A DNA stretch of 48,583 bases. It comes from a virus. Taxonomy: Duplodnaviria; Caudoviricetes. The first letter of the stretch is position 1, and every line of letters starts with the position of its first letter. The notes beneath the pieces were generated by a model. That model was not told the DNA's origin. It ran no database searches and saw nothing but the letters and a program-made list of their open reading frames with translations. The stretch is taken from IMG/VR virus record IMGVR_UViG_3300017785_007713, positions 1 through 48,583 of that record, one strand, 5' to 3'. Positions 1 through 48,583 of the stretch are shown here, one piece after another. Position numbers and translations under genes: made by a program.

Positions 1-1619
1 GAAGAACATGGAGATGGCATACCAACTATTCCAACCAGATATCCACCACCAACTTTTGTTCCAATTGGAAGACATGGCTGAACAGTGTTTGCTCTACAAT
101 CAGTTGATGCGTTGAAGTAGTCTTGAATAAAATTGCTACCACAACACTCAACTTCAACACAAGAGCTTCCAGCACCATGGAAGATTCCACCCAATGCAGA
201 GCATTCGGCTGGAAGCTGTTGCTCACAGATATATTCCCCATTGACTTTTCTACAACATGCTCCCGCAAGACCTTGACAACACGAAGCATCGGAGGTTTCT
301 GATGTACAGAAACCTCCACTGGTAAATACAGCACCAGGAATTTGAGAACATTCAACATTCGTTAAGTTAAAGCAATATCCCTTGTAGCAGCATCTTCCAG
401 TATTCACTGATCCTGGACATGTGTCTGGGCATGTAAATGACGATGCGGCATTTCTTTCACCAGAGCATATTTCTCCTGGGAAAAATGTACCATTATATTG
501 AAGACATTTTTCTAATGATGAATTTATACATTTACCATTGACACAGCAAGCACCTTCTGCATAACAATCACCAGATGATATTCTTTCTATACAGGGGGTT
601 GTGCTGAAACTACCACCGACATTGTTGCAATAACCCCTTGACACATAATCAAGACATCCTATTTCTGTCGTCCCACTTTCACAGAAACAACATGAACCAA
701 TATCATCAGATTCTATGTACTGTGGATCGAATATAGAATTTTCACTGAATGTGTTTTTTATGAATTTAAACGTCAGGTTATCTGAACCAGTAACACCGAG
801 ATTCAATGTTACTTGGGATATCGCTGGATCCTCGACCAATTGATAATTGTTGTTATTCAGACCGAATTGGCCATAGTTAACACTGAAAAATGCAAATCCA
901 GTGGCACCAGAAGCACCAGATATATTCTGATTGGAGAATGTGTATGTTGGTGTCCCTATATTCTGATTATTGTGAATTGGATGTCTGTCTGCTGCCAATG
1001 GGACACTCAGCAATCCTGTGCTCGCATTGTAATTCGACCCATCGACAGCAAACATCAAGTTATTTGCCTTGTATAGAATTTCTCCAGTGTTTCCAACTGC
1101 ATTAAATGAATATGTTCTGCCAACCAAATACAGATAACTTCCATCTGCACTTAATCCGACGAGTGCTCCACCAGATGATTCGAAGCTACGAATCTTGAGA
1201 GCAACCTCATCATTCGTTGGATCGAATCCTGAAAAGTTTGGTTGTATTGAAATTTGATTCGTGGATTCAAATACATTGACAAAGCTGTAAAGTACAGAAT
1301 AGCCTCTTGTTGCTGGTGGTCCTGATGTTAAGCCCTTGGCAACTATAATCGATTGTGGAACACCATTTACAAAGCTTGTTCCAGCATTTCCAGAAAACTG
1401 AACATAAAATTTACTTCCATTGAAATTTTCAAATGAAATTCCACTGGATGCGTAGAATACAGCAACTATACCCTGTCCAGTCGGACCAGTTCTACCAGTT
1501 AGTGCATCTCCAGTTATTCCAGTTGGGCCAGTTGGGCCAGTATCCCCCTGCAATCCTATTGCGGCTGGAATTACAGATGAATATACGGGGATTGGCGAGC
1601 TTCCAGGAAATGCACTCAT
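1..1619 (-). CDS. Cys-rich tail fibre/adhesin-like protein, partial (runs off the left edge); paralog of 1619..4498
   Basis: Not in the ORF track; translated by hand. ATG at 1619 overlaps the upstream TAA (TAATG). Reads MSAFPGSSPIPVYSSVIPAAIGLQGDTGPTGPTGITG..., then GSCCFC, GACCVNGKC, GRCCYKGYC, GACCRK repeats and ...PCLPIGTKVGGGYLVGIVG. No stop codon before position 1. Confidence 0.85.
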   Translation of the reverse strand, partial: MSAFPGSSPIPVYSSVIPAAIGLQGDTGPTGPTGITGDALTGRTGPTGQGIVAVFYASSGISFENFNGSKFYVQFSGNAGTSFVNGVPQSIIVAKGLTSGPPATRGYSVLYSFVNVFESTNQISIQPNFSGFDPTNDEVALKIRSFESSGGALVGLSADGSYLYLVGRTYSFNAVGNTGEILYKANNLMFAVDGSNYNASTGLLSVPLAADRHPIHNNQNIGTPTYTFSNQNISGASGATGFAFFSVNYGQFGLNNNNYQLVEDPAISQVTLNLGVTGSDNLTFKFIKNTFSENSIFDPQYIESDDIGSCCFCESGTTEIGCLDYVSRGYCNNVGGSFSTTPCIERISSGDCYAEGACCVNGKCINSSLEKCLQYNGTFFPGEICSGERNAASSFTCPDTCPGSVNTGRCCYKGYCFNLTNVECSQIPGAVFTSGGFCTSETSDASCCQGLAGACCRKVNGEYICEQQLPAECSALGGIFHGAGSSCVEVECCGSNFIQDYFNASTDCRANTVQPCLPIGTKVGGGYLVGIVGMPSPCS

Positions 1620-4498
1620 TATTGATTATCTATAATTGATTCTGACAGGATTGGTATGTTCCAGAACTTGAAATTTGCATCTGTATTCTGATAGTACCGC
1701 TTATCGCAGCGTATTAGTTTGATTGGTCTTACTTTATATTCATTTGTTCTGGTCTTCTTTGATATTGACATATTTTCAGATATGCCATCAACATCTATAT
1801 TAATAGCCCATGCATGTGATCCATGAGTTATTCCAGCAGTTGAATATATTCCCTCATTATCTGAAACATTAAAAGAACCAGTGGAAGACCAGTGCCAACC
1901 ACTAAGAGGGGTGTGTCCAAGTTCAATCAATCTTGCATTTAGATTGAAGTCAAACGTATTTCTACAGGAATTTGCCAGGAAAGCCAACTCATCTATGCTT
2001 GGTACGAACCAGTTAGTTGCATATGTTATTCCAGATGGCAAATATCTGTTGTAGATAGAAAGTGCTCTTGCTGCCGTCAACTCTCCAGTTGATGGTATGT
2101 AGTTTGTCAGAGTCGCACCACCACTAGAATAGCCTATGTTGTAGTAGAAGTATTCTGATGATGTGAGTCTTATTGTATTGTATAGACCATTATTTCTAGT
2201 CCAGTTGCCATTGAACGATTGATATGGTCTATTCTCCAAGAATGTGTATGCATCAGTGTCGAATCTAGCGGAAGAACAAGTAAGGAAGCTATTCTGATAT
2301 AAATTCAACTTAGACGATTCTTCGTTGTCTGAGTCGTAGATGTATCCTTCCTTGTATGCCAATCCACCATTATCGAAATCACTTACGGTTGAGCTGGCTA
2401 TGTCAATCAGTGGACCCCATGCGACCGATCCATTTGACCATATGAAGTTCGATGTATTTGACGAACCATCAAGAAGTGATTTGTCCGTGTTTAGGTTCAC
2501 TGGGTGTTTTGAGACAAGAACAATGTAACTATCAGAATCAGCATCACACACTGTAGCTGGATCGAAGCCATAACCAGAATAATCATATTCGGTCAAATAC
2601 TCAGTGCAATTTTCATTTGTTATTCCAATTAGATCGGAATATGATGTTTTAAGTCCAGCAAATAATTCTGATCCAAATGACGTAGTTTTATTTGGATTGA
2701 ATATACCGACCACCACCCCATCGTCTATTTCTAGACCAGGATATATTTGTGTATTTTCAATTATTGAGTAGCATGGTATTTCAGCTGGAGAACATGTGAA
2801 ATTTCCACATGTTGACCCATCACCAAAATATGTCTTGAATTCGGACAAACAAGTGGAACCAGTTATTCCTGGCGAACAAGTTATGCCAGAATCACAGCAA
2901 GATCCATATCCATCATAACACACATTCAATCCATCTGATGTGCCACAATTGATTCCAGTGCCTTGGAAATAGTGACCGTTAGATGTGCATTCATCTGATG
3001 TCAGTTCAGTACATCCACCGATTCCATCACAACATGCACCTACGCCAAGTTTGGCGTTAGTGCAATTGAAATCCGCACAACTCTTCTTAAGCGAAGTAAA
3101 TCTATTCCATTTGTAGGCAAGTCCCGATTGAGAGGCAGCTTGAGCACATTCACAGAAGGATAATTCCTGACATGGAACAACGATATTTTCATCTTCTGAA
3201 TACAAGCAACATGCTCCAAGATTCGAGCATGGACCAGAGACTCCACATGTGGATCCCTGATAGAAATAACCATTGCATTCAAAATCATAAGATGATTCAC
3301 ATGTGCAATCTGCCTTGCAGCAAATGCCCTCTACTGGATTGAATGTTATTCTATAAAAATTTTCTAAATTGTCTGGTTTACATGAAAATGATGCTGGTAT
3401 TGTCTTCGTTGTCGCAACAGTATTAAGGTCAGTGTCGAATATTGCTGGAATTCCAATATAACGAGATCCAGATGAGATGAAATTTATGACATCATATTTC
3501 TGCGATGGACAAAAGTATGATCCATATTGCCATACTACATTTGGTGAAAATATATTTTTAAACTGAAGAGTTGTAAAATTACTTTGAACTATATCACCAT
3601 CATTGTCGTATGTTGAATAGAACAGTCTGCTTTGTGGTGTTTCAACATAAAAATTGCTTGGAAGAATTACAGTGAATGCCTTTGTTGAATTTGTGGTGAC
3701 ATCCTTCTTTATGACTATATGATGTCCGTAAATCCCAGGGGATGGTGATGTTATTGGAAGATAACCAGCAAGGTAAAAAACAGATCCGATAGTTGGATCG
3801 ATTCTCCAAACCTGAATTGTATTTGATGATAGATTTATCGGATTCACAACAACCAGTTGTTCTGCTCCATTTAATATTCCAAAACCAGCAGCATTCTCCT
3901 CTGAGTTGTATGTGGATCCAGTGTAACCACTCTGGATATTTCCTGGGTTGTTTATGACCAATGATCCATCTGGTCCACCAGAGACATTGGATGCACCAAG
4001 ATTGAATACATCATAGGTCAGTTTTATTGTTTGACCTGGTTCTCCTTGATTTGGCGAGGAAGGTGGGCCTTTGTATTCCAGTTTTATGAATGGAGATGAA
4101 TTCGTCTTTATGTTCTTGAAGTTGAGTCTTCTGACGATCTCAAATGTATTAGTGTCACCATCTTCATTGTATATAAAATTCTGATCGTATATTTGCTGGG
4201 TTGAAGCCAATGGTGAGAAATTTCCACCAGTAGTGGCCGTTATTTCAAGTACGTAGTTTCCATTTACTTGCTGTATTGTAGATGATGTCTTTACATCTCC
4301 ATCGGTATAAACTGTGTTTATCTTGTTTCCAATGAAATTGATGAATGTTACACCATATCCAGTTGGGCCAGTTGGACCATATCCAGGATTTCCCTTTGGT
4401 CCTTGAGGTCCGACTTCACCCTGTGCTCCTTTGGCTCCACTGGAGGCGTAGAAGGTAAGACCAGTTATGTTGAATGGAGATGATCCGTATAGAGACAT
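1619..4498 (-). CDS. Tail fibre/receptor-binding-like protein: collagen-like N-terminus, G(A/S/I)CC Cys repeats, C-terminal DUF1566/Lcl-like domain
   Basis: 959 aa. GAKGAQGEVGPQGPKGNPG; four GxCC...C...G.F/Y.G.G..C repeats; C-terminal WFVPSIDEL...WHWSST...AWAI...VRPIK pattern typical of DUF1566. Confidence 0.75.
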   Translation of the reverse strand: MSLYGSSPFNITGLTFYASSGAKGAQGEVGPQGPKGNPGYGPTGPTGYGVTFINFIGNKINTVYTDGDVKTSSTIQQVNGNYVLEITATTGGNFSPLASTQQIYDQNFIYNEDGDTNTFEIVRRLNFKNIKTNSSPFIKLEYKGPPSSPNQGEPGQTIKLTYDVFNLGASNVSGGPDGSLVINNPGNIQSGYTGSTYNSEENAAGFGILNGAEQLVVVNPINLSSNTIQVWRIDPTIGSVFYLAGYLPITSPSPGIYGHHIVIKKDVTTNSTKAFTVILPSNFYVETPQSRLFYSTYDNDGDIVQSNFTTLQFKNIFSPNVVWQYGSYFCPSQKYDVINFISSGSRYIGIPAIFDTDLNTVATTKTIPASFSCKPDNLENFYRITFNPVEGICCKADCTCESSYDFECNGYFYQGSTCGVSGPCSNLGACCLYSEDENIVVPCQELSFCECAQAASQSGLAYKWNRFTSLKKSCADFNCTNAKLGVGACCDGIGGCTELTSDECTSNGHYFQGTGINCGTSDGLNVCYDGYGSCCDSGITCSPGITGSTCLSEFKTYFGDGSTCGNFTCSPAEIPCYSIIENTQIYPGLEIDDGVVVGIFNPNKTTSFGSELFAGLKTSYSDLIGITNENCTEYLTEYDYSGYGFDPATVCDADSDSYIVLVSKHPVNLNTDKSLLDGSSNTSNFIWSNGSVAWGPLIDIASSTVSDFDNGGLAYKEGYIYDSDNEESSKLNLYQNSFLTCSSARFDTDAYTFLENRPYQSFNGNWTRNNGLYNTIRLTSSEYFYYNIGYSSGGATLTNYIPSTGELTAARALSIYNRYLPSGITYATNWFVPSIDELAFLANSCRNTFDFNLNARLIELGHTPLSGWHWSSTGSFNVSDNEGIYSTAGITHGSHAWAINIDVDGISENMSISKKTRTNEYKVRPIKLIRCDKRYYQNTDANFKFWNIPILSESIIDNQ

Positions 4499-4519
4499 TT
4501 TAATTATTTATTCTTATTT

Positions 4520-6793
4520 TTATAACTCTTTGTACACTACAAATGCGTCTAATGCAATGTGTGAAAATGTTGATCCATAATCTGGTCCAAAATCTAATCT
4601 CATTTGATTTATTTTTGTTATATCCAGAGATTGATTTTTCATGAAAAAATCACCAGCTCTAAAAAAGGAAAAATTTGGTATTGTTGGAAATCCACCAATA
4701 TAAAATGGATCTACTAAAAATGGATTTATTCTGTTATCTATTTTTGTTTGTGGATAAAATCCACTAGAATAATTTTTTGAACTTATGGTAGCACTATTAT
4801 TAGATTCATCTATTAGTGTTAAATTAAAATTTGAATATTTATCATTTTTAGATATTCCAGATATTCCATGTATGTGCGTCTGACAAGCTCTAAGAGCAAT
4901 ATAATTATTTTCAGTCAACGATATTGAATTTTGAAATGTATATCCTAGTATTATATTTGATTCTATTGGAGTAAATAAAGATCTATATGAATTAAAAATT
5001 ATTCCATTATATGTGTCATTGTCCGTAAAAATATCGTTAATATTAAAATCTATTAATGTTGAAATACTTTTTAATTCAAATAAACCATTAATGAAAGTCT
5101 GACCTGGTTGTGCGTAAATTGTTGGTGGTATAGTATAAAATGCAGAGTCCATTGTATAATCAAATGTAAATCCAAGAGGATTATTTAATGTGAATCCAGT
5201 AGAACCAGCATATGATAAAGTTAATCCATAAAAATTATCAATTTGTATTTTGATGTCTTCTGCCACTGGATAAAAAGAATGAAATACAGCAGTTTTTGGA
5301 TTATTTTTTATTACGTTATCTATTTTTTGTTTATGTGGTGAAACGTATCTTAATTTTTTTAATTTATTGCTAGAAAATACATTAATTCCTAGAAAATATA
5401 AAATCCATGCAATGTGTTCGTTTAATACTAGCCTATTTGAATTTAAATAATGATTATCTATGAATCTATTTGATATTGAAAATGAAAGTTCAACCTCACC
5501 ATTTGACGTTAAATCTATTAATCCATTGTGTTCTCTGTTTGAAATTAAAATATATTTATCTAAATGATTTAATTTATCAATGTAGCTAAATCCTGGACTA
5601 AATACATGATTAACATACCCACTAAACCATCCTTCATTATCATTCAAACCGTTTATCACCATTAATGGTATATCATGATCTACTGTCAGATAGTTCAAAC
5701 TATCTTCAGCTGGATTACATTCACTAAAAGAAGAATCAATTTTATAATTTTTATTTATAATACCATCTACACCAACCGTATATCTACCAACAGATCCCAA
5801 TGTTATTATGGCTTTTATATCGGTATAATCAAATGACAGAGTATTTAATCTTGAATATTCAGCATTTTTTCTCTTCATTTGCATGGCAATAGATTCAACA
5901 AAAGCTCCACTCATACTTAATCCAATAAAAATAATTTTATTAAAATCTAATTTTCCATTGAATCTACCAGAATTTATTTTAGATATATTAACTTTAATAT
6001 GATCTAATAATGTTAAAATATGAAATTCACCAGTTTCCAACTGTATCTCTGGACTTATGTAAACGGAAATGCAAAAATATCCATAAGATGCAAATGTAGA
6101 AAGATAACTATCAAATCCTTCAACATATTGTTGATTTCCGTGTGCATATACCAAAACTGGCATTTGGTTTGATATGTTTGATGGATAAAAACATCTAACA
6201 GATTCTGCACCTAACATAGATGGGCATTTTGTAAATGCAGCTTGCCTTTCAGATATACTAAAGTCTGATGGACTTAAAATATCCAATTGTAAAAAATCAA
6301 CATCATATGGTCCAGTTTCATATGTATTTAAACACATATTTAAATCACTCACAATGTCATTTGACAATATTATCTGCTGATTTCCAACACCAGAGGAATT
6401 TTGAAATATCCTGAAAACAATTTTAAATTTTTTAAATAAATTATGAATATCTGAATCAGTTGTGTGCAATAAAATATAATCATTAGTTAATAAATCAGTG
6501 ATATTTCGCAAATCAACATTTAAAAAATTATTTGTTATATTTGATGTAGACAACGTAAAAATACTGGATAAAAATGTACCAGTGGTTTCAGCATTCATTA
6601 TTCTTACAAAAAGACTATACGACGAAATATTTCCAGAATTTATGCTTGTACCAATTAATGAATTTAACATCGATAAAGATACTATAAAATTTATCGGAGT
6701 TTTTGATATAAATGTATCGTTAATAGCACATGGTATATCAGTTACTGTGTTTATATCGTCTATTGGAATTCCTGTTAATGTTTTTTGAATCAT
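4520..6793 (-). CDS. Alpha/beta-hydrolase-fold protein within the tail module
   Basis: 757 aa. PVLVYAHG, LSTFASYGY, nucleophile-elbow-like FIGLSMSG, candidate Asp (GLND) and His (REHNG). Very AT-rich. Confidence 0.6.
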   Translation of the reverse strand: MIQKTLTGIPIDDINTVTDIPCAINDTFISKTPINFIVSLSMLNSLIGTSINSGNISSYSLFVRIMNAETTGTFLSSIFTLSTSNITNNFLNVDLRNITDLLTNDYILLHTTDSDIHNLFKKFKIVFRIFQNSSGVGNQQIILSNDIVSDLNMCLNTYETGPYDVDFLQLDILSPSDFSISERQAAFTKCPSMLGAESVRCFYPSNISNQMPVLVYAHGNQQYVEGFDSYLSTFASYGYFCISVYISPEIQLETGEFHILTLLDHIKVNISKINSGRFNGKLDFNKIIFIGLSMSGAFVESIAMQMKRKNAEYSRLNTLSFDYTDIKAIITLGSVGRYTVGVDGIINKNYKIDSSFSECNPAEDSLNYLTVDHDIPLMVINGLNDNEGWFSGYVNHVFSPGFSYIDKLNHLDKYILISNREHNGLIDLTSNGEVELSFSISNRFIDNHYLNSNRLVLNEHIAWILYFLGINVFSSNKLKKLRYVSPHKQKIDNVIKNNPKTAVFHSFYPVAEDIKIQIDNFYGLTLSYAGSTGFTLNNPLGFTFDYTMDSAFYTIPPTIYAQPGQTFINGLFELKSISTLIDFNINDIFTDNDTYNGIIFNSYRSLFTPIESNIILGYTFQNSISLTENNYIALRACQTHIHGISGISKNDKYSNFNLTLIDESNNSATISSKNYSSGFYPQTKIDNRINPFLVDPFYIGGFPTIPNFSFFRAGDFFMKNQSLDITKINQMRLDFGPDYGSTFSHIALDAFVVYKEL

Positions 6794-6797
6794 ATTA

Positions 6798-8855
6798 TTA
6801 AACTATTTGTTGTTCTAAGAATCTCTGAAGTGTAGAATTATATTTAAATATTTTATTATTTAAAATAAAAAATTCACCATTGGCGTTATAATAAAAATTA
6901 GCTTTTACAAAATCTAAATCTGTATTGATTCTAATAAATGTTGATGTGCTATATGTGTAGACTATAATATAGCTAGGCGTGCATAAAAAAAATAAATCTT
7001 GTGTTCCGAATAAGTTAAAAAATGTTAAAGAATTTATTTCAGGTATATCCATAGAAGTAAATTTTTTAATAAAACCACTAAAAGATGGAGATGGCTGAAT
7101 TGATGCAGTTTTAGGATTTCTTTCGAAATATCTAAAAACTGTATTTCCATCCTCTGTATAGAATGGAGCTCTGTAAACTGTTAATGATTTTTGATTCAAG
7201 TTGTAAAAGTTGTATAAAATAGCTGATGTGAAGTATGTCTCTGTAGAATACATCCTAGAGCACAAAACTTCTCTAGCAGTATTTGATGGTGTTGGAGTAA
7301 ATGATGGACCAAATGTAGTTTCTGCATCAAAATTATTAGCTGAGGAAAATTGTGTTATAGAAACTCCATCAACTAGTGATGGTCTTTCTGGAATAAATCC
7401 ATAAAATGTCTTGTAAGAATTATCCTCATAATAATAATTATTAATTTTTCTATGTATGTTAAAATTTATATTTGAAGACTGCAATTCAAATGTTCTAACT
7501 GGTTTTGCTGTATATAATATAAATACATCATCAATAAAACTATTTGCCGTTGTTTTTACATTTCCAGTTATTCCTATTAATCTTGTGTTTGCTTGTATAG
7601 ATGAAGGATTTACAATTCCTTGATATCTTGGTAGTTGTATTGTAATCTCTCTACTATTATAATCTATTTGATCATTTTTTAGTGCAAAATTTGTTAAAGT
7701 ATAATTTTTTCCGATGCATTTTATATCACAGGTTCTAAAAATACCTGGTATATTAGAATAAGAAGAATTTACGACTGGATTAAATGATGGTTGATTGTCT
7801 TTTATAAAGCCATGTGCATGACCCTCATGACATTTTTTCCACTTATGTTTAAACCCAGATAAATTATTCACAGATCGTCTATAATACTTTATTGGTGATG
7901 AAACTGACGGAGACGTATGTCTACAATCGTTATTTGATGGTGATTTATTCAAACCTTTAGTTGATACCACCATAGATGTCAATTCATCATCCGCTGCCCA
8001 TAATTTATCTTCTGGTGATCCTGGTAAATTTACATTTACAATAGCTTTTAATGTAAAAACAGATCCATTTATGTTTATGGAATAAATTTTATTAGTATTT
8101 TTTGCAAACAACAGAAGATCATTTCCATCATTTGATATTTTTGCTTCATAATTTGGTGTTGTTCCAAAATCAACCACATCCAATCCTGGTTCTATTACAA
8201 TGGAACTTTTTCGCACTTGTGCTATTTGTGCCGTATCGAATACATTGCTAGCTGCACGATATGTCAAACTTTTGATTACAAGCGTATCAGATTCTGGCAC
8301 ATAAAATAATGCTTTAGTCATGTCCTGAGAAATTGCACTTAATACCCGAACTCCTTGCGGTGCATTATTCACTAAAACAGGATTTATATATCCTAGATAA
8401 TTTCTAACTAAACCAGTATATTGTCCATGTGGAGATGCCTGATATATTGGTTTTATAACCATTCCAGTAAATGTAGGTCCACAATTCTGTAGCCACCCAT
8501 AACTAGTTCCACTTAAAAAATAAATATCATTAAGTCCAGAATTAGTTCCAGATACGTTAACGAGTCTATTTGATGGAATGGTTATTGAGCCATTTACCAC
8601 TACATTGAGTGATAAATCGGAATTCATGCTTTCAACTATACCGAAAACTTCAGCATTTTCTGGGAAATCTGCTTTTGATAGATTATATTGATTGGCAACT
8701 GTGTCAAATCGAATAACACTGCCAGTGGTTACACCAGAAACATATTCTGATTCTTTTATATTTACTATTATTCTAGATGTACCATAATTTGAATCATCTA
8801 TTGAGATGATCTTCTGCTGTTTGTTTATTGTTGAATAGTTGTTATCAAGACTCAT
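6798..8855 (-). CDS. Virion structural protein; N-terminal module paralogous to 8857..9363
   Basis: 685 aa. GSVIRFD...AEVFGIVE...IYFLS...G.LQN..P..G.VIKP module followed by an AT-rich C-terminal region. Confidence 0.65.
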   Translation of the reverse strand: MSLDNNYSTINKQQKIISIDDSNYGTSRIIVNIKESEYVSGVTTGSVIRFDTVANQYNLSKADFPENAEVFGIVESMNSDLSLNVVVNGSITIPSNRLVNVSGTNSGLNDIYFLSGTSYGWLQNCGPTFTGMVIKPIYQASPHGQYTGLVRNYLGYINPVLVNNAPQGVRVLSAISQDMTKALFYVPESDTLVIKSLTYRAASNVFDTAQIAQVRKSSIVIEPGLDVVDFGTTPNYEAKISNDGNDLLLFAKNTNKIYSININGSVFTLKAIVNVNLPGSPEDKLWAADDELTSMVVSTKGLNKSPSNNDCRHTSPSVSSPIKYYRRSVNNLSGFKHKWKKCHEGHAHGFIKDNQPSFNPVVNSSYSNIPGIFRTCDIKCIGKNYTLTNFALKNDQIDYNSREITIQLPRYQGIVNPSSIQANTRLIGITGNVKTTANSFIDDVFILYTAKPVRTFELQSSNINFNIHRKINNYYYEDNSYKTFYGFIPERPSLVDGVSITQFSSANNFDAETTFGPSFTPTPSNTAREVLCSRMYSTETYFTSAILYNFYNLNQKSLTVYRAPFYTEDGNTVFRYFERNPKTASIQPSPSFSGFIKKFTSMDIPEINSLTFFNLFGTQDLFFLCTPSYIIVYTYSTSTFIRINTDLDFVKANFYYNANGEFFILNNKIFKYNSTLQRFLEQQIV

Positions 8856-9371: not shown

Positions 9372-11747
9372 TCATATACTGAAATCTGAATTTGCTACTA
9401 TATTGAAATACAACTCGTCGTATGTTACATATCCACCAAGAGCGCATATGTTTGCACCATGTATCGATGGTGTTGCAGAAATCGTTGAGGCATTGAGTCT
9501 GGACTCACGAACTGAGCTTCCATATCCTATTGTTCCAGAAGTATTTCTCATATCAAGACCAGCGGTCTTATTGTATGCATCGTTCTGCACTCCAGAGAAT
9601 GGAGAATAGATTGAAACCGTTGGAGTTACACGCATTCTTGTTGGCCACCGAAGCATGTTGCATGTTTTGTTTGGCAATATGAATGTGTCAAGTGAATTTG
9701 ATGTCGGTGTGGTTGTATCAAACATCGTGATAGAACCAATTGTCTGCGTTTCAGTGTAATTCGTATAGTAGAATTGCTGGCAGTATTCGAGCTGATCGTT
9801 GTAATCCTGATATATGGCATTTGGAACACTTGTACCTACTGTGGCGACGAATGAAGCCACACTCACTGTTATATTCTGACCTAGTGTGATTCCATTGATG
9901 TTTGCCTGTTCCATCAGAGGAATGAAATCAATGCCAACCTCGCAGTAGTCGTCGTTCAGATCAATATCAATTCCATTATTTTCAAGTGCTGCAATGGGTG
10001 AATTGAATGTGAATGGTTGCCATGTTCCAGTTAGATTTGCCGTTCCAAGTTTCTTGTAATCTATCAGCGATAAACCAGAATATCTTGTGAAATACACATC
10101 GACTGGATAGATGTCAGTGGATACTTTTCCATAGAACTTGACATTCAGATTGTTCAAATCAAATTTCTTGGCACCTGGAATAACATGGCCAACCATGAGA
10201 TGGTCATAGTCATTGTATCCACCAGAGGTTCCAGAGGCACCCATAGCGGATAAACCTAGATGCTTGAAATCTACATAATACCGTGGATTTCCTTCTATTT
10301 CTGTTTGATATTCATCGAATTCACTTCGAATTATCGAATAACTCTTTGTTCCATCCGAACCAGAAATATCATCATGTCTTCTCCACATATCTGCAAATAC
10401 GAGACTTCCCGATGCAGTATATGCGTTTTCTCTACCAGTATTATCTCTCTGCCAAACCTCAAAGTTTCCATTGACGAGATAATTGGTTCCCTGATTCAGA
10501 CCACCACTTGCACCGTCAGCGGAAATATATGTGCTTGATGATGCTGGGAGGGATCTATCTGTAACGTATCCAGATTTGGCCTTGTTTACTACAACGGCTC
10601 CGTTCGTGGAATACTTTATGAATGCAACATGCTCAGATGGAGTCTGGGTATATTGTGGATTTGCAGATGGATTTGCACCATCATACAGTGGATTCAAATA
10701 GTAGGTTCCAGCTGAATAGCTATTGAATATGTCAGTGAATCCATATAAAGATATTTCAAGGAATCCAAGACCACCGATATCCAATATGTCTGTAACAACA
10801 CCAAGTGCATTTTCTGGTCGAATATTTACCGTGCCGCTAAATGGTGGATTTGACCAAGCTATGGATCTTTCCGTCATAGAGGAAATTAAAGCATAACCAT
10901 TTGGAATATCGCTACCAGCAATTCCACCGTAAAGTTCATATCCAAGGCTTTGCATCTCTGTTCTGGATTGACCTTGGACTTCAATCAAGGAAACCATGGT
11001 CCCATCAACAATCGTTGTGGATGTAAGTACAGCAGATGAACCAGTGTTGATTATGATTCTATCGTTAGCACCAGTGCCACCACTAAATCCTTCAGAGTTG
11101 AGATAATTACCTCTCATCTGAAGAACCATGCCGACATTACCAGTTATACCCATGATTACTGGTTTTGAAACTTGACCAGTTTGAATTGGTTCTACATCCG
11201 TTATTGATCCAGTTGTGCCTGGATCCAGGAAGTATATCCAGCCAGCGGTTAGGCCAATTCCTCTTGTATTGACAGTGCTAAAATCACCAGTTATCTGACC
11301 AAGAAGAGTTACATATGCATATGTCGATGTTATTTCAGATACCACACCGAAAACTTCGGCCTGATCGGGATCATTGCCTCTGGCTGCTTCATATTTGTTT
11401 GTGTTTGTTGCTATGTCTCTATAGACTCGAACTGGAGTACCAAAAGTATATCCACCAACTGTAGAATTAATGGTGGGAACTCTAACCGATATGTTGGGAA
11501 TGGCAACTGTATTGTTGAAATAGACTGGTCCGTTGAAGGATATTCCATTATCAACTTTTCCACTTAGGCTTATGGTTGCTTTTCCAGTCAAAGCAATAGG
11601 AGCAGTGATACCATCTCCACCCTCAACAGTGAATGTGTTGATTAGATTCAACTTTTCGATTATTTCATTGTTTTCTTTTTGAAACCAATCGTAAAAGGAA
11701 CTATCCGAGTTCAGTTGGGTTATCTGTGTGTCTCTATCTATTGCCAT
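9372..11747 (-). CDS. Tail fibre protein
   Basis: 791 aa. Contains the shared AEVFGVV...IYFLDP...VSKP module and a C-terminal NYLVNGNFEVWQR...ADMW...LEYCQQFY domain typical of phage fibres. Confidence 0.7.
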   Translation of the reverse strand: MAIDRDTQITQLNSDSSFYDWFQKENNEIIEKLNLINTFTVEGGDGITAPIALTGKATISLSGKVDNGISFNGPVYFNNTVAIPNISVRVPTINSTVGGYTFGTPVRVYRDIATNTNKYEAARGNDPDQAEVFGVVSEITSTYAYVTLLGQITGDFSTVNTRGIGLTAGWIYFLDPGTTGSITDVEPIQTGQVSKPVIMGITGNVGMVLQMRGNYLNSEGFSGGTGANDRIIINTGSSAVLTSTTIVDGTMVSLIEVQGQSRTEMQSLGYELYGGIAGSDIPNGYALISSMTERSIAWSNPPFSGTVNIRPENALGVVTDILDIGGLGFLEISLYGFTDIFNSYSAGTYYLNPLYDGANPSANPQYTQTPSEHVAFIKYSTNGAVVVNKAKSGYVTDRSLPASSSTYISADGASGGLNQGTNYLVNGNFEVWQRDNTGRENAYTASGSLVFADMWRRHDDISGSDGTKSYSIIRSEFDEYQTEIEGNPRYYVDFKHLGLSAMGASGTSGGYNDYDHLMVGHVIPGAKKFDLNNLNVKFYGKVSTDIYPVDVYFTRYSGLSLIDYKKLGTANLTGTWQPFTFNSPIAALENNGIDIDLNDDYCEVGIDFIPLMEQANINGITLGQNITVSVASFVATVGTSVPNAIYQDYNDQLEYCQQFYYTNYTETQTIGSITMFDTTTPTSNSLDTFILPNKTCNMLRWPTRMRVTPTVSIYSPFSGVQNDAYNKTAGLDMRNTSGTIGYGSSVRESRLNASTISATPSIHGANICALGGYVTYDELYFNIVANSDFSI

Positions 11748-29803: not shown

Positions 29804-29834
29804 ACAAACCCCGCGAAAGCGGGGTTTGTTTTTT
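29804..29834. terminator. Intrinsic terminator between convergent genes
   Basis: ACAAACCCCGC-GAAA-GCGGGGTTTGT followed by a T run. Confidence 0.85.
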
Positions 29835-30724
29835 CAACTCTCCATCTCAAACAACTTCATCGGATCAATGTCTTCCGATTCATCCTCAACCTTTGGCTGT
29901 CGCTTCTGCTTACCAGGAGAAGACTTTTCCCTGAAATCTGACTCATCCATGTCCTCTGCGGTCTTACCACCAACTGGTGTAGTTCCACGAATATCTCCAC
30001 CCAGAACATCGTACAGACGCTTCTTGAGTTCATCATAGCTCTTGAAGCTATCTGGTGCGATGAACGCCTGTAGAGAATGCTGCTGCTTCCACAGAACTTC
30101 CAACTTCTTTTCATCACCAGCGAAAAGAGCCGATGTTGAATCAAACTCAGACTTATCGTAATTGGTGTATCCACCAATCTTACGAATCTTCAACTTGAAA
30201 TTGCAACCATTCCAAAAATCAAATGGATTGATTGCATCTTCATCCTTGAACTCTGGCTTCATCTTCTCTTGAATCTTGTCAAAAATCTTGGTTCCGTACT
30301 TGTACAGGAAAACCTTACCTTCATTCTGGGGATTCGCTTCATCCTTGATTACAAGGATGTTGCTAATGTAGGTGGTCTTGCGCTTACGCGAGCGCGCGAT
30401 ATTCTTATCTTCCTCAGAACCAGTGTTCCAGAGTTCGCTGTTGAGTTCACTTACTGGATCCTTCTGCTGAAGGGTAGTGAGAGAATTCTCAATATACCAT
30501 CCACCCATTCCCTGGAATGCGTGTGAATAGACCTTAACCCATGGGCAATCTTCGCCGTCGATCTCTGGAAGAAATCGAATTACAGCAAAACCATTGCCCT
30601 GCTTATCCTGCTCTGGTCGCCAAAAACGATCATCCTTATAATCCTTCTTGGTGCCATCCTCAAGCTTCTTCATCAGGTCGTTGATACTGTTCTTCGACCT
30701 ACTCTTAAGATCCTTAAAACTCAT
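29834..30724 (-). CDS. gp32: Single-stranded DNA-binding protein (T4 gp32)
   Basis: DDRFWRP..DKQGNGFAVIRFLP, HAFQG.GGWYIENSLTTL, NEGKVFLYKYG.KIFDKI, NYDKSEF; acidic tail. Confidence 0.97.
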   Translation of the reverse strand: MSFKDLKSRSKNSINDLMKKLEDGTKKDYKDDRFWRPEQDKQGNGFAVIRFLPEIDGEDCPWVKVYSHAFQGMGGWYIENSLTTLQQKDPVSELNSELWNTGSEEDKNIARSRKRKTTYISNILVIKDEANPQNEGKVFLYKYGTKIFDKIQEKMKPEFKDEDAINPFDFWNGCNFKLKIRKIGGYTNYDKSEFDSTSALFAGDEKKLEVLWKQQHSLQAFIAPDSFKSYDELKKRLYDVLGGDIRGTTPVGGKTAEDMDESDFREKSSPGKQKRQPKVEDESEDIDPMKLFEMES

Positions 30725-34077: not shown

Positions 34078-34153
34078 CGCGGGTGACAGGAGTCGAACCT
34101 GTATAAGTCCAGTTACGGTACTACTGCTTAGAAGGCAGAGCCGATACACCCGC
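34078..34153 (-). tRNA. Non-canonical tRNA-Arg(UCU)-like gene with no D-arm at the normal position
   Basis: GCGGGTG/CACCCGC acceptor stem, CTGC-CTTCTAA-GCAG anticodon arm, ACAGG-TTCGACT-CCTGT T-arm. No encoded CCA. Confidence 0.7.
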
Positions 34154-35007: not shown

Positions 35008-35009
35008 AG

Positions 35010-35084
35010 TACGCCGTCTTGGATTCGAACCAAGTCTTACTCGATTATAAGTCGAGCTGAGATAACCAAGACCTCCCACGGCGC
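35010..35084 (-). tRNA. tRNA-Ile(UAU)
   Basis: GCGCCGT/ACGGCGT acceptor, GAGG/TCTC D-stem, CTCGA-CTTATAA-TCGAG anticodon arm, CTTGG-TTCGAAT-CCAAG T-arm. No encoded CCA. Confidence 0.88.
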
Positions 35085-36200: not shown

Positions 36201-36476
36201 TCAGCGGCTATCGCTAGACGCGCACATCGACTCAATGCAGAACTTCTGCTTGCTACCACCGCTGTTACGCATGAAGTAACGAGTTCCACCGTTGCGAGTC
36301 TCCTCAGTATCAATCTCCCAATTACCATAACGCTCGACAAGAGTGCGAATATCACTCATCATTGCACGAATGTTCTTGACACCAAAACGGGAACGAGCCT
36401 CAGCAGCAGTGATTCCACGACCAGCAGCAAGATAATTCAGAACGCGACGCTTCTTCGAAACAATAGTATTAGCCAT
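36201..36476 (-). CDS. Small helix-turn-helix DNA-binding protein
   Basis: RVLNYLAAGRGITAAEARSRFGVKNIRAMMSDIR...RY; GGAG RBS. Confidence 0.75.
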   Translation of the reverse strand: MANTIVSKKRRVLNYLAAGRGITAAEARSRFGVKNIRAMMSDIRTLVERYGNWEIDTEETRNGGTRYFMRNSGGSKQKFCIESMCASSDSR

Positions 36477-36585: not shown

Positions 36586-36657
36586 TGCTTTGGGTGGGTA
36601 CTGCCCCCACATTCTTCACCTTAAAAGGGTGCTGCATTACTAGTCTGCCACCAAAGC
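36586..36657 (-). tRNA. tRNA-Lys(UUU) with non-canonical D and T loops
   Basis: GCTTTGG/CCAAAGC acceptor, CACC-CTTTTAA-GGTG anticodon arm, GTGGG-GGCAGTA-CCCAC T-arm. Confidence 0.75.
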
Positions 36658-37542: not shown

Positions 37543-37571
37543 ATTGTAACATCAGCCATCAGTGCTGTCAA
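37543..37571 (-). promoter_or_regulatory. Sigma70 promoter, probably giving a leaderless mRNA
   Basis: TTGACA-17 bp-TACAAT ending 6 nt upstream of the ATG at 37536. Confidence 0.75.
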
Positions 37572-38739: not shown

Positions 38740-39132
38740 CTATTTCTTTTTATTCGGTCTTTTCGCTTGCGGTGCTTGCGCTTTACGTCGATCTGGGCTG
38801 CGTTTGGCATTATCTACTCCTTTTTGTTCACTTGTCTCTGGTTTCTTTCCACGAAGTTCATCTTCTGTATGAAAATACAGAACATTTGGGATATAAAACG
38901 ATTTCCAATCTCTTGACACCACATCAAATACTGGTAAAAGATTAGGATCCCCCTCACCACCAATTGATTTTGCTACACCATCGTAGTATTTTGCTGGAAT
39001 TTGCTTGGTATCAAGTGTGCAGACAAGTGACCTGAACCGACCATTTGTCTGCTTTCTAAATTGAACCTTGCAAAACCCCTTCGTTAGGTGTTCGACAAGA
39101 GATTCTCTGTTGATTTTTTCTCCGTGAATCAT
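38740..39132 (-). CDS. DUF2693/WYL_2-like SH3/Sm-fold protein
   Basis: L.KG.CKVQFRK..G.FRSL.CTL...VFDV...DWKSF pattern. Confidence 0.75.
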   Translation of the reverse strand: MIHGEKINRESLVEHLTKGFCKVQFRKQTNGRFRSLVCTLDTKQIPAKYYDGVAKSIGGEGDPNLLPVFDVVSRDWKSFYIPNVLYFHTEDELRGKKPETSEQKGVDNAKRSPDRRKAQAPQAKRPNKKK

Positions 39133-40625: not shown

Positions 40626-40653
40626 TTGACAGGTTTATTTTCGTTGATATAAT
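40626..40653 (+). promoter_or_regulatory. Consensus sigma70-type promoter firing antisense into 40690..41892
   Basis: TTGACA-16 bp-TATAAT with TGn upstream of the -10; no credible plus-strand ORF follows. Confidence 0.6.
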
Positions 40654-45630: not shown

Positions 45631-45876
45631 TTTAATACCCTTTAAAGTATTTAGAAAAAAACTAATAGAGTGTTTTTTTCTAGGAAAAAATTTTTGAGTT
45701 CTGGGAGTCCCATGATGAGTAAGGGGGTGGGGAGGGGGTCTGAGGTGTTGAAGAGCAAGCCCCTAGCGACAGATGGGATCCCAAACGCTGTTTTTACTGT
45801 TCTGTGACAGGTTTGGAGCGTGACAAGGGTCACGGCCAATTGCTGATAGTGTTTACGAAAAATCTTGTCGAAGCAT

Positions 45877-45905
45877 CTATATTGAGATGCAGAGTGTGGT
45901 ACAAT
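45877..45905 (+). promoter_or_regulatory. Cassette promoter 1
   Basis: CTATAT-17 bp-TACAAT; hairpin GGGC-AATTCT-GCCC at 45912-45925. Confidence 0.8.
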
Positions 45906-45940
45906 TCGGTAGGGCAATTCTGCCCAACAGGAGATTTGAA

Positions 45941-46189
45941 ATGAATAAGTTTAGAGTTACCACACTTAACGGTGGCTCGAACCTGCTCGTTAGCAGGTTC
46001 GAATTTGAAGGGTTATCTTACGCCATCAAGGTGGCGGAAGAAACCCCCGAGAACCTTCGGGCAATCGTGTCTGTCTTCAACCCCTATAAGGGGGGGTGGG
46101 TTGACATTCTCGACCGTAGGGCGGCACACACGCCACCCGAAGGCTACGGCCTTCGGACCAGGCCGCCTGTCCTGTTGCCGATCTTCTGA
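45941..46189 (+). CDS. Cassette 1 hypothetical protein (82 aa)
   Basis: AGGAG RBS then MNKFRVTTL...PVLLPIF. Confidence 0.75.
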   Translation: MNKFRVTTLNGGSNLLVSRFEFEGLSYAIKVAEETPENLRAIVSVFNPYKGGWVDILDRRAAHTPPEGYGLRTRPPVLLPIF

Positions 46190-46210
46190 TCGGCCCCCCC
46201 CCCCACATCG

Positions 46211-46268
46211 TCTTTTCTCCCCACGGGGCTACGGTGGTTCACCCGACCACCGTAGCCCTTGTTTATTT
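46211..46268 (+). terminator. Terminator-like hairpin, copy A
   Basis: GGGCTACGGTGGT-TCACCCG-ACCACCGTAGCCC followed by TTGTTTATTT. Confidence 0.8.
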
Positions 46269-46330
46269 GGTGGTTGCACTATCAGCACCCAGCTGCTGAT
46301 AGTTCTCCTAAAGAAATTGCTACGATGGCT

Positions 46331-46359
46331 CTATATTAGAAGTTCATCTGTGGTATACT
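46331..46359 (+). promoter_or_regulatory. Cassette promoter 2
   Basis: CTATAT-17 bp-TATACT; hairpin GTTGGC-AATGGT-GCCAAC at 46366-46383. Confidence 0.8.
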
Positions 46360-46399
46360 TCACTCGTTGGCAATGGTGCCAACCCTGTCTGGAGGATCC

Positions 46400-46654
46400 A
46401 TGAGTAAACTTTACTGTAAGATTTCGGAGTCCGCTCGTCGGACTGTCCCGACCGCACGCGCCCACCACGCGGCGACCGTTGAGGTCGCCAACTGGAAGTT
46501 CCGCATCTCTGTGCGGATGATCGCCAACGGTGGCGGTGGGGCCGATATGGTTTCGGTGATCATCACCAACCTGGAATCGGGTTGGTCTGAACAGATCGTG
46601 AACGAAACCGCTGGCGAAATCTGGCGCAAGCAAACGCACGCGCCATCCCTCTGA
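46400..46654 (+). CDS. Cassette 2 hypothetical protein (84 aa)
   Basis: GGAGG RBS then MSKLYCKISES...THAPSL. Confidence 0.75.
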   Translation: MSKLYCKISESARRTVPTARAHHAATVEVANWKFRISVRMIANGGGGADMVSVIITNLESGWSEQIVNETAGEIWRKQTHAPSL

Positions 46655-46712
46655 TCTTTTCTCCCCATGGGGCTAGGATGGTTCACCCGACCATCCTAGC
46701 CCTTGTTTATTT
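46655..46712 (+). terminator. Terminator-like hairpin, copy B
   Basis: GGGCTAGGATGGT-TCACCCG-ACCATCCTAGCCC followed by TTGTTTATTT. Confidence 0.8.
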
Positions 46713-46772
46713 TGTCCTTGTACTATCAGCAACACGCTGCTGATAGTTCGGCAAAGAAATCCCAAGATTGAT

Positions 46773-46801
46773 CTATGTTTGGTGACACCGTGTTGTAGAA
46801 T
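46773..46801 (+). promoter_or_regulatory. Cassette promoter 3
   Basis: CTATGT-17 bp-TAGAAT; hairpin GGGC-AATGCC-GCCC at 46808-46821. Confidence 0.78.
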
Positions 46802-46833
46802 ACCCTTGGGCAATGCCGCCCACGGAGGATTGT

Positions 46834-47229
46834 ATGTCCATTCACGAAGCGTTTATGAAATTGGTTGAACAGCCGATTTCGTGTGGGAAGTTCTATGTGG
46901 TCCTGTGGAAAGAAATGCAGTTCTACGGTGGCCCACAGGAGGGCGGATGGTGGGGCTGGGACAGCGTTCCAGAATCCTATGTGGTCGTCAACACCCGCGA
47001 GGATGCGATTGGCCTCGCCAAGCGCATCGTTGGGCTGGCAGCGGAACTGAACCGCGAGGCGATCATGGAACACGGGCGCGCATGTATCGCCCAGTTGGAG
47101 CACTGTGAGGCTCGAGGCATCGAAGACGCTAACACCGTCTTCGGTGAGGTTGGTGGTCCCGACAGGTACAAGGTCAGGATCTCGACTAAACTCCCTCGCG
47201 CACGCTACGGAGATCGGCAGTGGTCTTGA
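46834..47229 (+). CDS. Cassette 3 hypothetical protein (131 aa) with a YGGPQEGGWW motif
   Basis: GGAGGATTGT RBS then MSIHEAFMKL...; GC-rich codons. Confidence 0.8.
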   Translation: MSIHEAFMKLVEQPISCGKFYVVLWKEMQFYGGPQEGGWWGWDSVPESYVVVNTREDAIGLAKRIVGLAAELNREAIMEHGRACIAQLEHCEARGIEDANTVFGEVGGPDRYKVRISTKLPRARYGDRQWS

Positions 47230-47231
47230 GC

Positions 47232-47263
47232 GAGGGGGCTTCGGCCCCCTCTGCCTTTTTTTT
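47232..47263 (+). terminator. Intrinsic terminator
   Basis: GAGGGGGC-TTCG-GCCCCCTC, then TGCC and T8. Confidence 0.85.
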
Positions 47264-47321
47264 AGTGGCACTATCAGCAACACGCTGCTGATAGTTCGGC
47301 AAAGAAATCTTGTAGAATCAT

Positions 47322-47350
47322 CTATATTGGAGCGCAGGGTATCGTAGAAT
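47322..47350 (+). promoter_or_regulatory. Cassette promoter 4
   Basis: CTATAT-17 bp-TAGAAT; hairpin GGGC-AATTCC-GCCC at 47357-47370. Confidence 0.8.
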
Positions 47351-47385
47351 ACCGATGGGCAATTCCGCCCTTTGGAGGATTGTAA

Positions 47386-47670
47386 ATGATCGTCAAGAAT
47401 GTGAGCATCGCTCAGGCGACCTCGCATCTGTCGCACCCCGCACAGATGCTCTACACGGGGATGACCCCCGATGATGTCCGCAAGGAACCGTTCGGGTTCC
47501 TCGCCATGTGCGAGGATGGCACGATTCGCGGTGGCATCACCGCCAGTCTCATGTCCCTGTCAGACATGATCGCAAACATGAAGCGGGAATATCACCCCAC
47601 GGAAATCATGTCGTTCGATTTCCGCGAGGCCGACCCGCGCGTTCTATTCCCCGCACGGAGGAGCGCGTGA
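47386..47670 (+). CDS. Cassette 4 hypothetical protein (94 aa)
   Basis: GGAGGATTGT RBS then MIVKNVSIAQ.... Confidence 0.8.
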   Translation: MIVKNVSIAQATSHLSHPAQMLYTGMTPDDVRKEPFGFLAMCEDGTIRGGITASLMSLSDMIANMKREYHPTEIMSFDFREADPRVLFPARRSA

Positions 47671-47674
47671 AACC

Positions 47675-47700
47675 CAACACCCGCCGAAAGGCGGGTGTTG
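47675..47700 (+). terminator. Terminator-like hairpin with a weak U tract
   Basis: CAACACCCGCC-GAAA-GGCGGGTGTTG. Confidence 0.7.
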
Positions 47701-47804
47701 TCATGCCATGGCCGCACTATCAGCAACCACGCTGCTGATAGTTCGCCGCACCCCACTTTCAGATTTCCCGTGAAATATAAATCTGGGAAATATCGTCAAG
47801 CCGT

Positions 47805-47833
47805 CTATATTGAAGTGCAGGGTATCGTATACT
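47805..47833 (+). promoter_or_regulatory. Cassette promoter 5
   Basis: CTATAT-17 bp-TATACT; hairpin GCGC-AATGTC-GCGC at 47840-47853. Confidence 0.8.
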
Positions 47834-47870
47834 ACACACGCGCAATGTCGCGCATTGGAGGATTGTCGAT

Positions 47871-48233
47871 ATGGTCAAGTTTGTTCGTGAGTGGTTCAGC
47901 CGTCTGTTCCCCGCCCCCGCACCCGCCGCGCCGATCACCGTCGTGTCGCCGTTCAAGTCGTTCGAGTACTGGGTGCTCGGAGCGCACCGCAGCAAGGTGA
48001 TCGCGGCGGGAACGGTGACCGCGCGGTGCGAAGCCGATGCGATCAAGTCGATCTACTCCCTCGCGGGAGAGCGCATCCAGTTCCACAACGGTGGACGCTA
48101 CCGCGTCCACCACGGCGGGGACGGCGTGGTTGTGACCCGCATCGACCGCGCGGATCGGCGGAAGGCTGGCGACCGCAAGCGGCACCGCGACCGCCGCGCG
48201 GAAACTGCCGACTGGGGAACGGTGGGGGAATAA
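47871..48233 (+). CDS. Cassette 5 hypothetical protein (120 aa, Arg-rich C-terminus)
   Basis: GGAGGATTGT RBS then MVKFVREWFSRLF.... Confidence 0.78.
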   Translation: MVKFVREWFSRLFPAPAPAAPITVVSPFKSFEYWVLGAHRSKVIAAGTVTARCEADAIKSIYSLAGERIQFHNGGRYRVHHGGDGVVVTRIDRADRRKAGDRKRHRDRRAETADWGTVGE

Positions 48234-48252
48234 CCCCACCCAACCCACGCAA

Positions 48253-48287
48253 CCCAAAGGGGGGCTTCGGCCCCCCTCGACTTTGGG
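48253..48287 (+). terminator. Terminator-like hairpin
   Basis: GGGGGGC-TTCG-GCCCCCC, extendable by CCCAAA/TTTGGG. Confidence 0.7.
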
Positions 48288-48349
48288 ACAGCCGTACTAT
48301 CAGCAACCACGCTGCTGATAGTCCTCTCAAAGAAATTTTGTTGAAGCAT

Positions 48350-48378
48350 CTATATTTGGGGGCGAAGTCTGGTACAAT
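48350..48378 (+). promoter_or_regulatory. Cassette promoter 6
   Basis: CTATAT-17 bp-TACAAT; hairpin GGGC-AATTCC-GCCC at 48385-48398. Confidence 0.8.
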
Positions 48379-48418
48379 CCCATAGGGCAATTCCGCCCCA
48401 CACAACTTGGAGGATTGT

Positions 48419-48583
48419 ATGGCTCTCAACTGGAATGTCGGCAAGGTCAAGGACTTCAAGACCGTCTGCTACAATGCGGACGGCAAGGTGAATGCGGTCA
48501 CCGAGACGCTTATCTGGGCAAGCATGATCATCGGGGTGAGCGACATCACCGAGAAGAACGCGGAGGAGTTCTTCTTCCGCATC
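48419..48583 (+). CDS. Cassette 6 hypothetical protein, partial (runs off the right edge)
   Basis: Not in the track. GGAGGATTGT-ATG, then MALNWNVGKVKDFKTVCYNADGKVNAVTETLIWASMIIGVSDITEKNAEEFFFRI.... Confidence 0.75.
   Translation, partial: MALNWNVGKVKDFKTVCYNADGKVNAVTETLIWASMIIGVSDITEKNAEEFFFRI

Follow-up and report, generated by a model that had tools for sequence, protein, structure and literature searches.

What would read a promoter whose −35 position is filled by a conserved sequence that resembles TTGACA very little? This question is raised by the window, by which we mean the whole 48,583-nt stretch IMGVR_UViG_3300017785_007713, a 48.6-kb piece of the genome of an uncultured T4-like freshwater phage. 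As the original prediction had described, a hexamer CTAT(A/G)T stands on the plus strand at 45877, 46331, 46773 (here CTATGT), 47322, 47805 and 48350, every time with a T on either side and exactly 17 nt from TACAAT, TATACT or TAGAAT (two of each). This box is one component of a repeated cassette head of about 110 nt in an early-type region of the genome, and the heads, judged by their sequence, are putative promoters. We conclude that the phenomenon is real and selected and that the comparison across relatives is more telling than the window alone. With a probability of roughly 0.45, we consider the heads to be promoters used by the housekeeping sigma, with a lineage-specific phage factor reading the −35 slot in a logic like that of MotA or PafBC.

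The box and its spacing

The pattern CTATRT-N17-TANNNT matches the window seven times compared with 1.31 matches expected, and none of 100 shuffles attained seven; the seventh match, at 9398, lies antisense within a structural gene. The array extends beyond the window in two contigs of the same phage. L119 matches the window end base for base and adds 178 nt, and its last 58 bases are exactly the first 58 of L128, which carries CTATAT-17-TATACT (209) and CTATAC-17-TATACT (918), followed by TTGACT (1517), TTGACA (2020) and TTGACA (2848), every spacing being 17 nt. In total, the array comprises 11 cassettes, with the box in the first eight (six in the window and two in L128) and TTGAC(A/T) in cassettes 9–11.

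Over these eight box cassettes, pairwise identity reaches 94% in the 8-nt box, compared with 46% in the spacer and 54% in the 20 nt upstream (column-permutation P = 2.2e-4). The words TCTAT(A/G)(T/C)T stand 17 nt from TANNNT in 8/8 cases on the plus strand of the array and in 0/15 cases in the 45.7-kb core. The box-to-−10 spacing is 17 in 8/8 cassettes, whereas the distance from the upstream palindrome arm to the box is variable (25, 26, 26, 26, 27, 27, 36 and 62 nt). The simplest reading of these patterns is that selection acts on both the box and its spacing. The proposal that motif and position are selected while the spacers differ is upheld in its first part; the spacers are not unrelated, with pairs sharing 5–15 of 17 bases (mean in the window 8.7/17, or 51%), a consequence of the units being divergent repeats of a single cassette head. 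A 22-bp tandem duplication as the origin of the box was ruled out by eye, the spacer and upstream sequence being unlike. Among 40 listed of 256 strain differences, none falls in a box or a −10, which we do not count as evidence, and the joints at the heads in the strain-variation data represent cross-mapping of paralogues and not shown recombination.

The box matches TTGACA at 1/6 positions in the 17-nt register, at 1–3/6 in the 16-nt register and at 2–3/6 in the 18-nt register. The −10 is sigma70-like in 11/11 cassettes of the array, and the −35 is sigma70-like in 3/11 and unlike in 8/11. A TGn extension precedes the −10 in 5/8 box cassettes, and an A-tract is conserved upstream. Three sequence classes coexist in this phage, as had been predicted: the box cassettes, TTGACA promoters (TTGACA-17-TAYAAT on the minus strand at 37571, 36702, 35125 and 34434, and TTGACA-16-TATAAT on the plus strand at 40626) and eight copies of the T4-late sequence TATAAATA.

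The available text of two reports (PMC2839356; PMC4122927) describes PeSL and PmSL cassettes in the T4-type phages RB49/phi1, PST/T4 and nt-1/KVP40, with a PeSL promoter consensus that varies by lineage (TTGACA, TTTACW, TTGYVH) and Mot-box PmSLs in nt-1. As far as that text goes, the heads studied here (six in the window and five in L128) resemble PeSLs in that a promoter and a stem-loop are repeated with an AT-rich upstream tract and a Shine-Dalgarno sequence, each before a small ORFan, and in that they occupy a part of a T4-like genome that is variable, with cassettes exchanged between relatives. They differ in that the early-type consensuses published there retain TT and stay near sigma70, whereas the window slot matches at 1/6 positions and varies between close relatives; moreover, box and TTGACA cassettes share one array, and the TGATAGT palindrome and the leader hairpin are additional. 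On this comparison of sequences, the architecture is of the known PeSL type, and the lineage-by-lineage recoded −35 slot is a variant of it. The original claim of a new promoter class is therefore too strong: the box and its spacing look selected and the box lies far from TTGACA, but the units are PeSL-type heads and the hexamer is lineage-specific. In the titles and abstract openings that our literature search covered (most subscription papers lie outside it), no CTATAT phage promoter class is mentioned, and the figures and supplements of the PeSL reports could hold similar variants.

The −35 slot in related phages

Six lineages with like arrays were compared, and the confinement of each box was assessed over nine stretches. 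Palindrome scans, from each of which the many single chance matches were dropped, yielded 11 loci (2 relevant), 33 loci (7 relevant including the window: L117, L119, L125, L126, L128, L131, L136) and, in a further scan, 37 loci, four of which were relevant (L158, L159, L172, L163). L185 was read and rejected, and L151, L152 and L111 were found to be unrelated.

The closest relative, which we call the sister (L100/L110/L126, with the variant L136), has core proteins 68–90% identical to those of the window phage, with one at 43%, and has the junction upstream of the array, the palindrome and orthologous open reading frames (ORFs) in common with it. The sister's −35 slots, at 17 nt in 7/7 cassettes, read TAGACA (four), TAGACT (two) and TCGACA (one), and the promoters of its core and opposing early genes are of the TTGAC(A/T) type. 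The sister slot, too, is a conserved island, with 87% identity in the hexamer and 94% in its first five columns versus 41% in the spacer (P = 3e-4). We identify the slot with the −35 position because the sister orthologues carry TAGACW or TCGACA there and L131 carries TTGACA-17. Because of these sister sequences and the TTGAC(A/T) of cassettes 9–11, the box is considered lineage-specific and is not a clade-wide class.

The other lineages widen this range. G007/G010 (G007 gp32 78% identical) have TTGACA-17-TAG(G/A)GT four times in near-identical heads, G002/G006 (gp32 62–63%) have the slots TTGCAY and TTGACA, and L131 has TTGACA-17 three times, once ahead of a GGGCAATGTCGCCC leader shared with L128:209. 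In L163, TGCAGTCACRACAA-N7-TAYAAT occurs in 11/11 copies on both strands, with 95% identity in the box versus 40% in the spacer; cassette proteins in common (tblastx E values to 5e-37) and ACTATCAG…CTGATAGT hairpins link this contig to the clade. This long, unrelated box has the geometry that reading by a protein would lead one to expect, and L163 is a cleaner instance than the window of a box replacing the −35. Its 11 cassette copies (2340–7450) diverge from the junction, and many have an ATG 6–7 nt past the −10 (leaderless). By lineage (n = 6), the slot is canonical or nearly so in three, one mismatch away in one and non-canonical in two. Each box is essentially limited to its own lineage among the nine stretches, and TTGAC(A/T) promoter patterns occur in 9/9.

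In the scans of viral contigs, a CTATAT array turned up in no lineage other than that of the window phage. The strict full motif was matched at one locus, a single intergenic copy in L001, an unrelated AT-rich phage, which we take as chance; the looser motif was matched at 15 loci, with one match each and no GC-rich cassette array. The L001 copy (3001–3049) reads TCTATGTT-16-TATAAT and stands, with a GGC-AATTAT-GCC hairpin after it, ahead of an SSB-like gene; it is probably fortuitous.

Between the window phage and the sister, the order and content of the array differ, six cassettes are orthologous, and the slot differs in 6/6 of these pairs. The slot is nonetheless uniform throughout the sister and across cassettes 1–8 of the window phage. 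Slot plus spacer are nearer to the phage's own paralogues in 6/7 sister cassettes, whereas several flanks are nearer to the orthologue of the other phage (upstream s2–w5, 28 vs 1.5; leader s6–c10, 36 vs 28), the flank scores of the remaining cassettes being low and uninformative. The slot thus appears to change in concert within each genome while the cassette flanks partly track orthologues. Conserved islands and the same slot change throughout a genome point to a reader acting in trans that differs between close relatives.

Concerted change might also be produced without any reader, if the box were a functionless decayed −35 spread by recombination among the heads in the manner of PeSL homogenisation. 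The heads are 60–75% identical, cassettes have been shuffled between relatives, the near-identical heads of G007 were recently homogenised, and recombination at PeSLs is documented in the available text of PMC2839356. However, conversion copies contiguous tracts, and here an 8-nt island lies between flanks of 46% and 54% identity, with like islands in the sister and in L163, inverted copies included. Contiguous conversion is not expected to leave such islands, and a repeated identical change is not mere weakening; we therefore consider this explanation highly improbable.

The differing slots bear equally on the alternative host sigma that had been put forward as one possible reader, with a TATAAT-like −10 and CTATAT as its −35. 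The exact 17-nt geometry is what a single sigma with regions 2 and 4 imposes. Nevertheless, because the slot differs between relatives as close as the sister, a separate host sigma would be needed for each, and a canonical −35 drives the same cassettes in relatives. In addition, TTGACA promoters persist elsewhere in both phages, which suggests no change in the housekeeping sigma. We accordingly disfavour an alternative host sigma and consider it very unlikely.

The series TTGACA, TAGACA, TAGACT, TATACT, TATATT can be ordered by single changes if the spacer shortens from 17 to 16. This path is hypothetical because the homology register differs between MAFFT alignments.

A proposed phage factor at the slot and its alternatives

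A phage factor replacing sigma region 4, the other reader originally suggested, appears to fit best, and the factor reading the box is likely to be a fast-evolving phage product acting with the host polymerase. In such a scheme, host RNA polymerase with its primary sigma would read the TA(C/T/G)A(A/C)T −10, aided by TGn and the upstream A-tract, and transcription would start at the leader hairpin, about 7 nt downstream of the −10. Either by binding the box or by retuning region 4, a phage protein that enters with the virion or is the first to be made would allow the box cassettes to be switched as one set, separately from the TTGACA promoters. Rapid co-evolution of box and reader would give each lineage its own box. 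A bolder form of this reading, which we regard as somewhat unlikely, is a private and fast-evolving promoter code: a phage protein, possibly virion-delivered, would replace sigma region 4, and each lineage would rewrite both reader and box (TTGACA, TAGACW, TCTATAYT, TGCAGTCACRACAA), so that early genes would respond to the factor of their own phage alone, and a co-infecting relative's factor would not fire them.

The logic of sigma appropriation is already known from T4 MotA/AsiA. According to the available text of PMC2988021, T4 middle promoters have a host −10, half of them with TGn, and the MotA box WWWTGCTTtA replaces the −35 at 12±1 bp from the −10. The window heads would be similar in combining a host −10 with a phage-specific box in place of the −35, but their box is TCTATAYT at 16 bp from the −10 and their genes are early-type cassette ORFans; no MotA box (TGCTT 12±1 bp upstream of the −10) occurs in the window array. 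PafBC of mycobacteria, a host WYL activator, is described in the available text of PMC8635444 as reading tGTCgg-N10-tA-N3-T at −26 together with a canonical −10. This, too, is a hybrid promoter in which an activator-read element stands in for the −35, as would be the case here. The PafBC motif tGTCgg-N10-tA-N3-T is absent from the window array, L128 and L163.

Several findings weigh against a phage factor. Sigma70_r4, AsiA and MotA_activ profiles found nothing in five fragments of relatives (13–49% complete, with no positive-control match for AsiA and MotA), and Sigma70_r2 gave one weak match alone, in a 202-aa gp55-like ORF beside gp47. The window's one winged helix-turn-helix gene (36201–36476, minus strand, 91 aa; PF14090 below cut-off, phrog_4973; 54–91% identical across relatives) was rejected as the discriminator of boxes, as the differently boxed sister has it at 90% identity and with no change in the predicted recognition helix; a site common to the clade, for instance TGATAGT, is a candidate target of its product. 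At 8 nt the box is short, with invariant positions that agree with TANNNT (TATATT, TATGTT, TATACT), and L131 uses TATATT as a true-position −10. Cassettes with TTGAC(A/T) stand in the same array, as 9–11, and MAFFT pairs TATATT with TCGACA once and TCTATA with TAGACA in another pair.

The fit to TANNNT raises the possibility that the box is itself a second −10, TCTATAYT, of sigmaS-like type, which would give tandem starts 22 bp apart. In the available text of PMC3367168, the extended −10 consensus of Escherichia coli sigmaS is TCTATACTTAA, the first eight letters of which match the box at 6–8/8 positions; the box at L128:918 is TCTATACT, six other boxes are one base away, variation is restricted to tolerated middle positions, and TATATT works as a −10 in L131. 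However, no consistent −35 lies upstream of the box (best 1–3/6, with one TTGAGA at 18 nt), TAA follows the box in 0/8 cases, and the box occupies the −35 slot of another −10. The leader hairpin is positioned from the downstream −10 (8 nt in 6/7), the homologous slot TAGACA of the sister is no −10, and fixed spacing would be needless for independent −10s. Furthermore, this phage probably infects something other than an enterobacterium. We find a second −10 quite unlikely.

The TGn extension and the upstream A-tract bear on another explanation, namely that these are −35-independent sigma70 promoters (−10, TGn and a UP-like A-tract) used by unmodified host polymerase, and that the box is an operator at which a repressor, encoded by phage or host, turns off the early cassettes jointly. 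A poor −35 can be compensated by TGn and UP, as stated in the available text of PMC2613000; weak conservation also reaches upstream of the box to GAAGCAT, and lineage-specific change would suit repression by a phage protein no less than activation. On the other hand, TGn is missing from 3/8 box cassettes, an exact 17 nt in 8/8 is not required of an operator, and the sister slot remains one mismatch off TTGACA. An operator is unlikely in our view.

If a phage factor reads the box, these phages offer a naturally occurring set of orthologous promoters, recoded at the −35 slot alone, from the consensus through one mismatch to a wholly different sequence, and the evolution of a new promoter specificity would be directly testable in the clade. 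It would also suggest that this T4-like group has a protein that retunes sigma and is not related to MotA/AsiA; early and middle control is described as unresolved in the cyanophage branch of T4-like phages in the available text of PMC2984593. Were the box instead to serve as an operator, or as a second −10, the heads would represent a modest PeSL variant.

Cassette anatomy and genomic setting

Each head consists, in order, of a terminator-like hairpin, the palindrome ACTATCAGCA-N6/7-TGCTGATAGT, an A-tract, the TCTAT(A/G)TT box, 16 nt, the −10, a leader hairpin GC-AATnnn-GC, GGAG and the ORF, with one gene per cassette and 82–131 aa in the uncut ORFs of the window. The features that follow are on the plus strand except for the full palindromes and the GC-rich hairpin, to which no strand is assigned. 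Cassette 1 has the right palindrome arm alone (TGCTGATAGT, 45841–45850), then the −35-slot box TCTATATT (45876–45883), a TACAAT −10 with TGn (45900–45905), a predicted 5′ leader hairpin, GGGC-AATTCT-GCCC, where transcription is predicted to begin (45912–45925; folding z −1.75, alone not significant) and an ORF of 82 aa (45941–46189) that matched no PHROG or Pfam family. A terminator-like hairpin (46225–46259) leads to cassette 2, with its palindrome ACTATCAGCA-N6-TGCTGATAGT (46278–46303), box TCTATATT (46330–46337), TATACT −10 with TGn (46354–46359) and an 84-aa ORF (46400–46654), the homologue of which lies at about 4723–4955 of L100. Next come a terminator-like hairpin (46669–46703) and cassette 3, with its palindrome (46722–46747), box TCTATGTT (46772–46779), TAGAAT −10 (46796–46801) and an ORF of 131 aa (46834–47229) matching phrog_24642, which has no assigned function (E 2e-18). 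Cassette 4 follows a terminator-like hairpin with a T-run (47232–47251) and has its palindrome at 47270–47295, box TCTATATT at 47321–47328, TAGAAT −10 at 47345–47350 and a 94-aa ORF at 47386–47670 that matched no family.

In cassette 5, a palindrome with an N7 loop (47716–47742) precedes the box TCTATATT (47804–47811) and a TATACT −10 (47828–47833), the orthologous cassette of the sister reading TCGACA-17-TATACT; its 120-aa ORF (47871–48233) has nine database matches including its own sequence, at 49–99% identity, and none is a named protein. A GC-rich hairpin lies downstream of that ORF (48260–48276). Cassette 6 has an N7-loop palindrome (48296–48322), box TCTATATT (48349–48356), TACAAT −10 with TGn (48373–48378), a predicted leader hairpin GGGC-AATTCC-GCCC (48385–48398) and an ORF (48419–48583) truncated by the window end that carries on in L119. 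Similar leader hairpins are predicted at 46366–46383, 46808–46821, 47357–47370 and 47840–47853. Their stems covary around a common AAT loop start, and compared with shuffles the predicted hairpins are not significant (z −1.75 to +0.77); an Rfam scan of the array found no family.

The words TGATAGT/ACTATCA occur 11 times in the 2.9 kb of the array and 5 times in the 45.7 kb of the core, a roughly 35-fold difference in density, and, unlike the −35 box, are common to the clade (window 45841–48322, L128, L110, L145, L146, L147, L163 and L131). In L145, the palindrome arms flank long hairpins that show compensatory changes. When both ends of all 193 loci were checked, the contigs of G007, G010 and L131 were found to terminate exactly at TG(C/T)TGAT within an arm; an end match in L076 was dropped because it is inside a coding gene. 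These ends are possibly programmed nicks, and repeats break assemblies too. The word TTATCCACA, which we take to be a DnaA box, adjoins cassette promoters in L128 (three), L145 (four) and L163 (two), with none in the six cassettes of the window or in the sister's array; our interpretation of the GATAGT-type sites and of the gp55/gp47 adjacency is likewise presumptive.

A non-coding junction containing TGGGAGTCCC (45648–45825, unstranded) divides the AT-rich minus-strand late/core block from the GC-rich plus-strand cassette array, and the GC content climbs across it from about 0.40 to 0.55–0.57. It is 85.6% identical to L100/L110 over 180 nt, and the TGGGAGTCCC cluster is also present in G002, G006, G007 and G010. 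In these four and in L163, the junction is recognisable where strand and GC content switch. It is a candidate genome end, packaging signal or origin signal.

The window also encodes the T4-like marker gp32 (29834–30724), baseplate-type genes and further structural genes. The best cultured relatives of gp32 are from cyanophages (53–62% identity), and blastn of the cassette array against 50,697 phage records gave no match. Runs containing at least half of the stretch number five, from three studies of freshwater and crustacean metagenomes, one possibly being the source, with no RNA run among those listed. GTDB scans for a host gave nothing informative. Two long minus-strand proteins (3–4498) carry GPTG repeats and Cys-rich G.CC repeats that are Planctomycetota-like, and in the ESM Atlas the Cys-rich repeats of ORF 3–1619 led to Planctomycetota (score 0.90), a weak lead to the host.

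Three tRNA-like genes lie on the minus strand (34078–34153, 35009–35084 and 36586–36657); Rfam detects two and ARAGORN a third (Ile, anticodon TAT), neither tool finding all three. A stand-alone WYL_2 protein (PF10902, E 5e-08; 38740–39132, minus strand) is 68% identical in the sister, and L163 cassettes have similar-looking ORFs. Finally, leaderless mRNAs are predicted at several TTGACA promoters, where an ATG lies 6–8 nt past the −10 (window 37571–37536, minus strand; L126 5362–8959, minus strand), beside cassettes led by a Shine-Dalgarno sequence.

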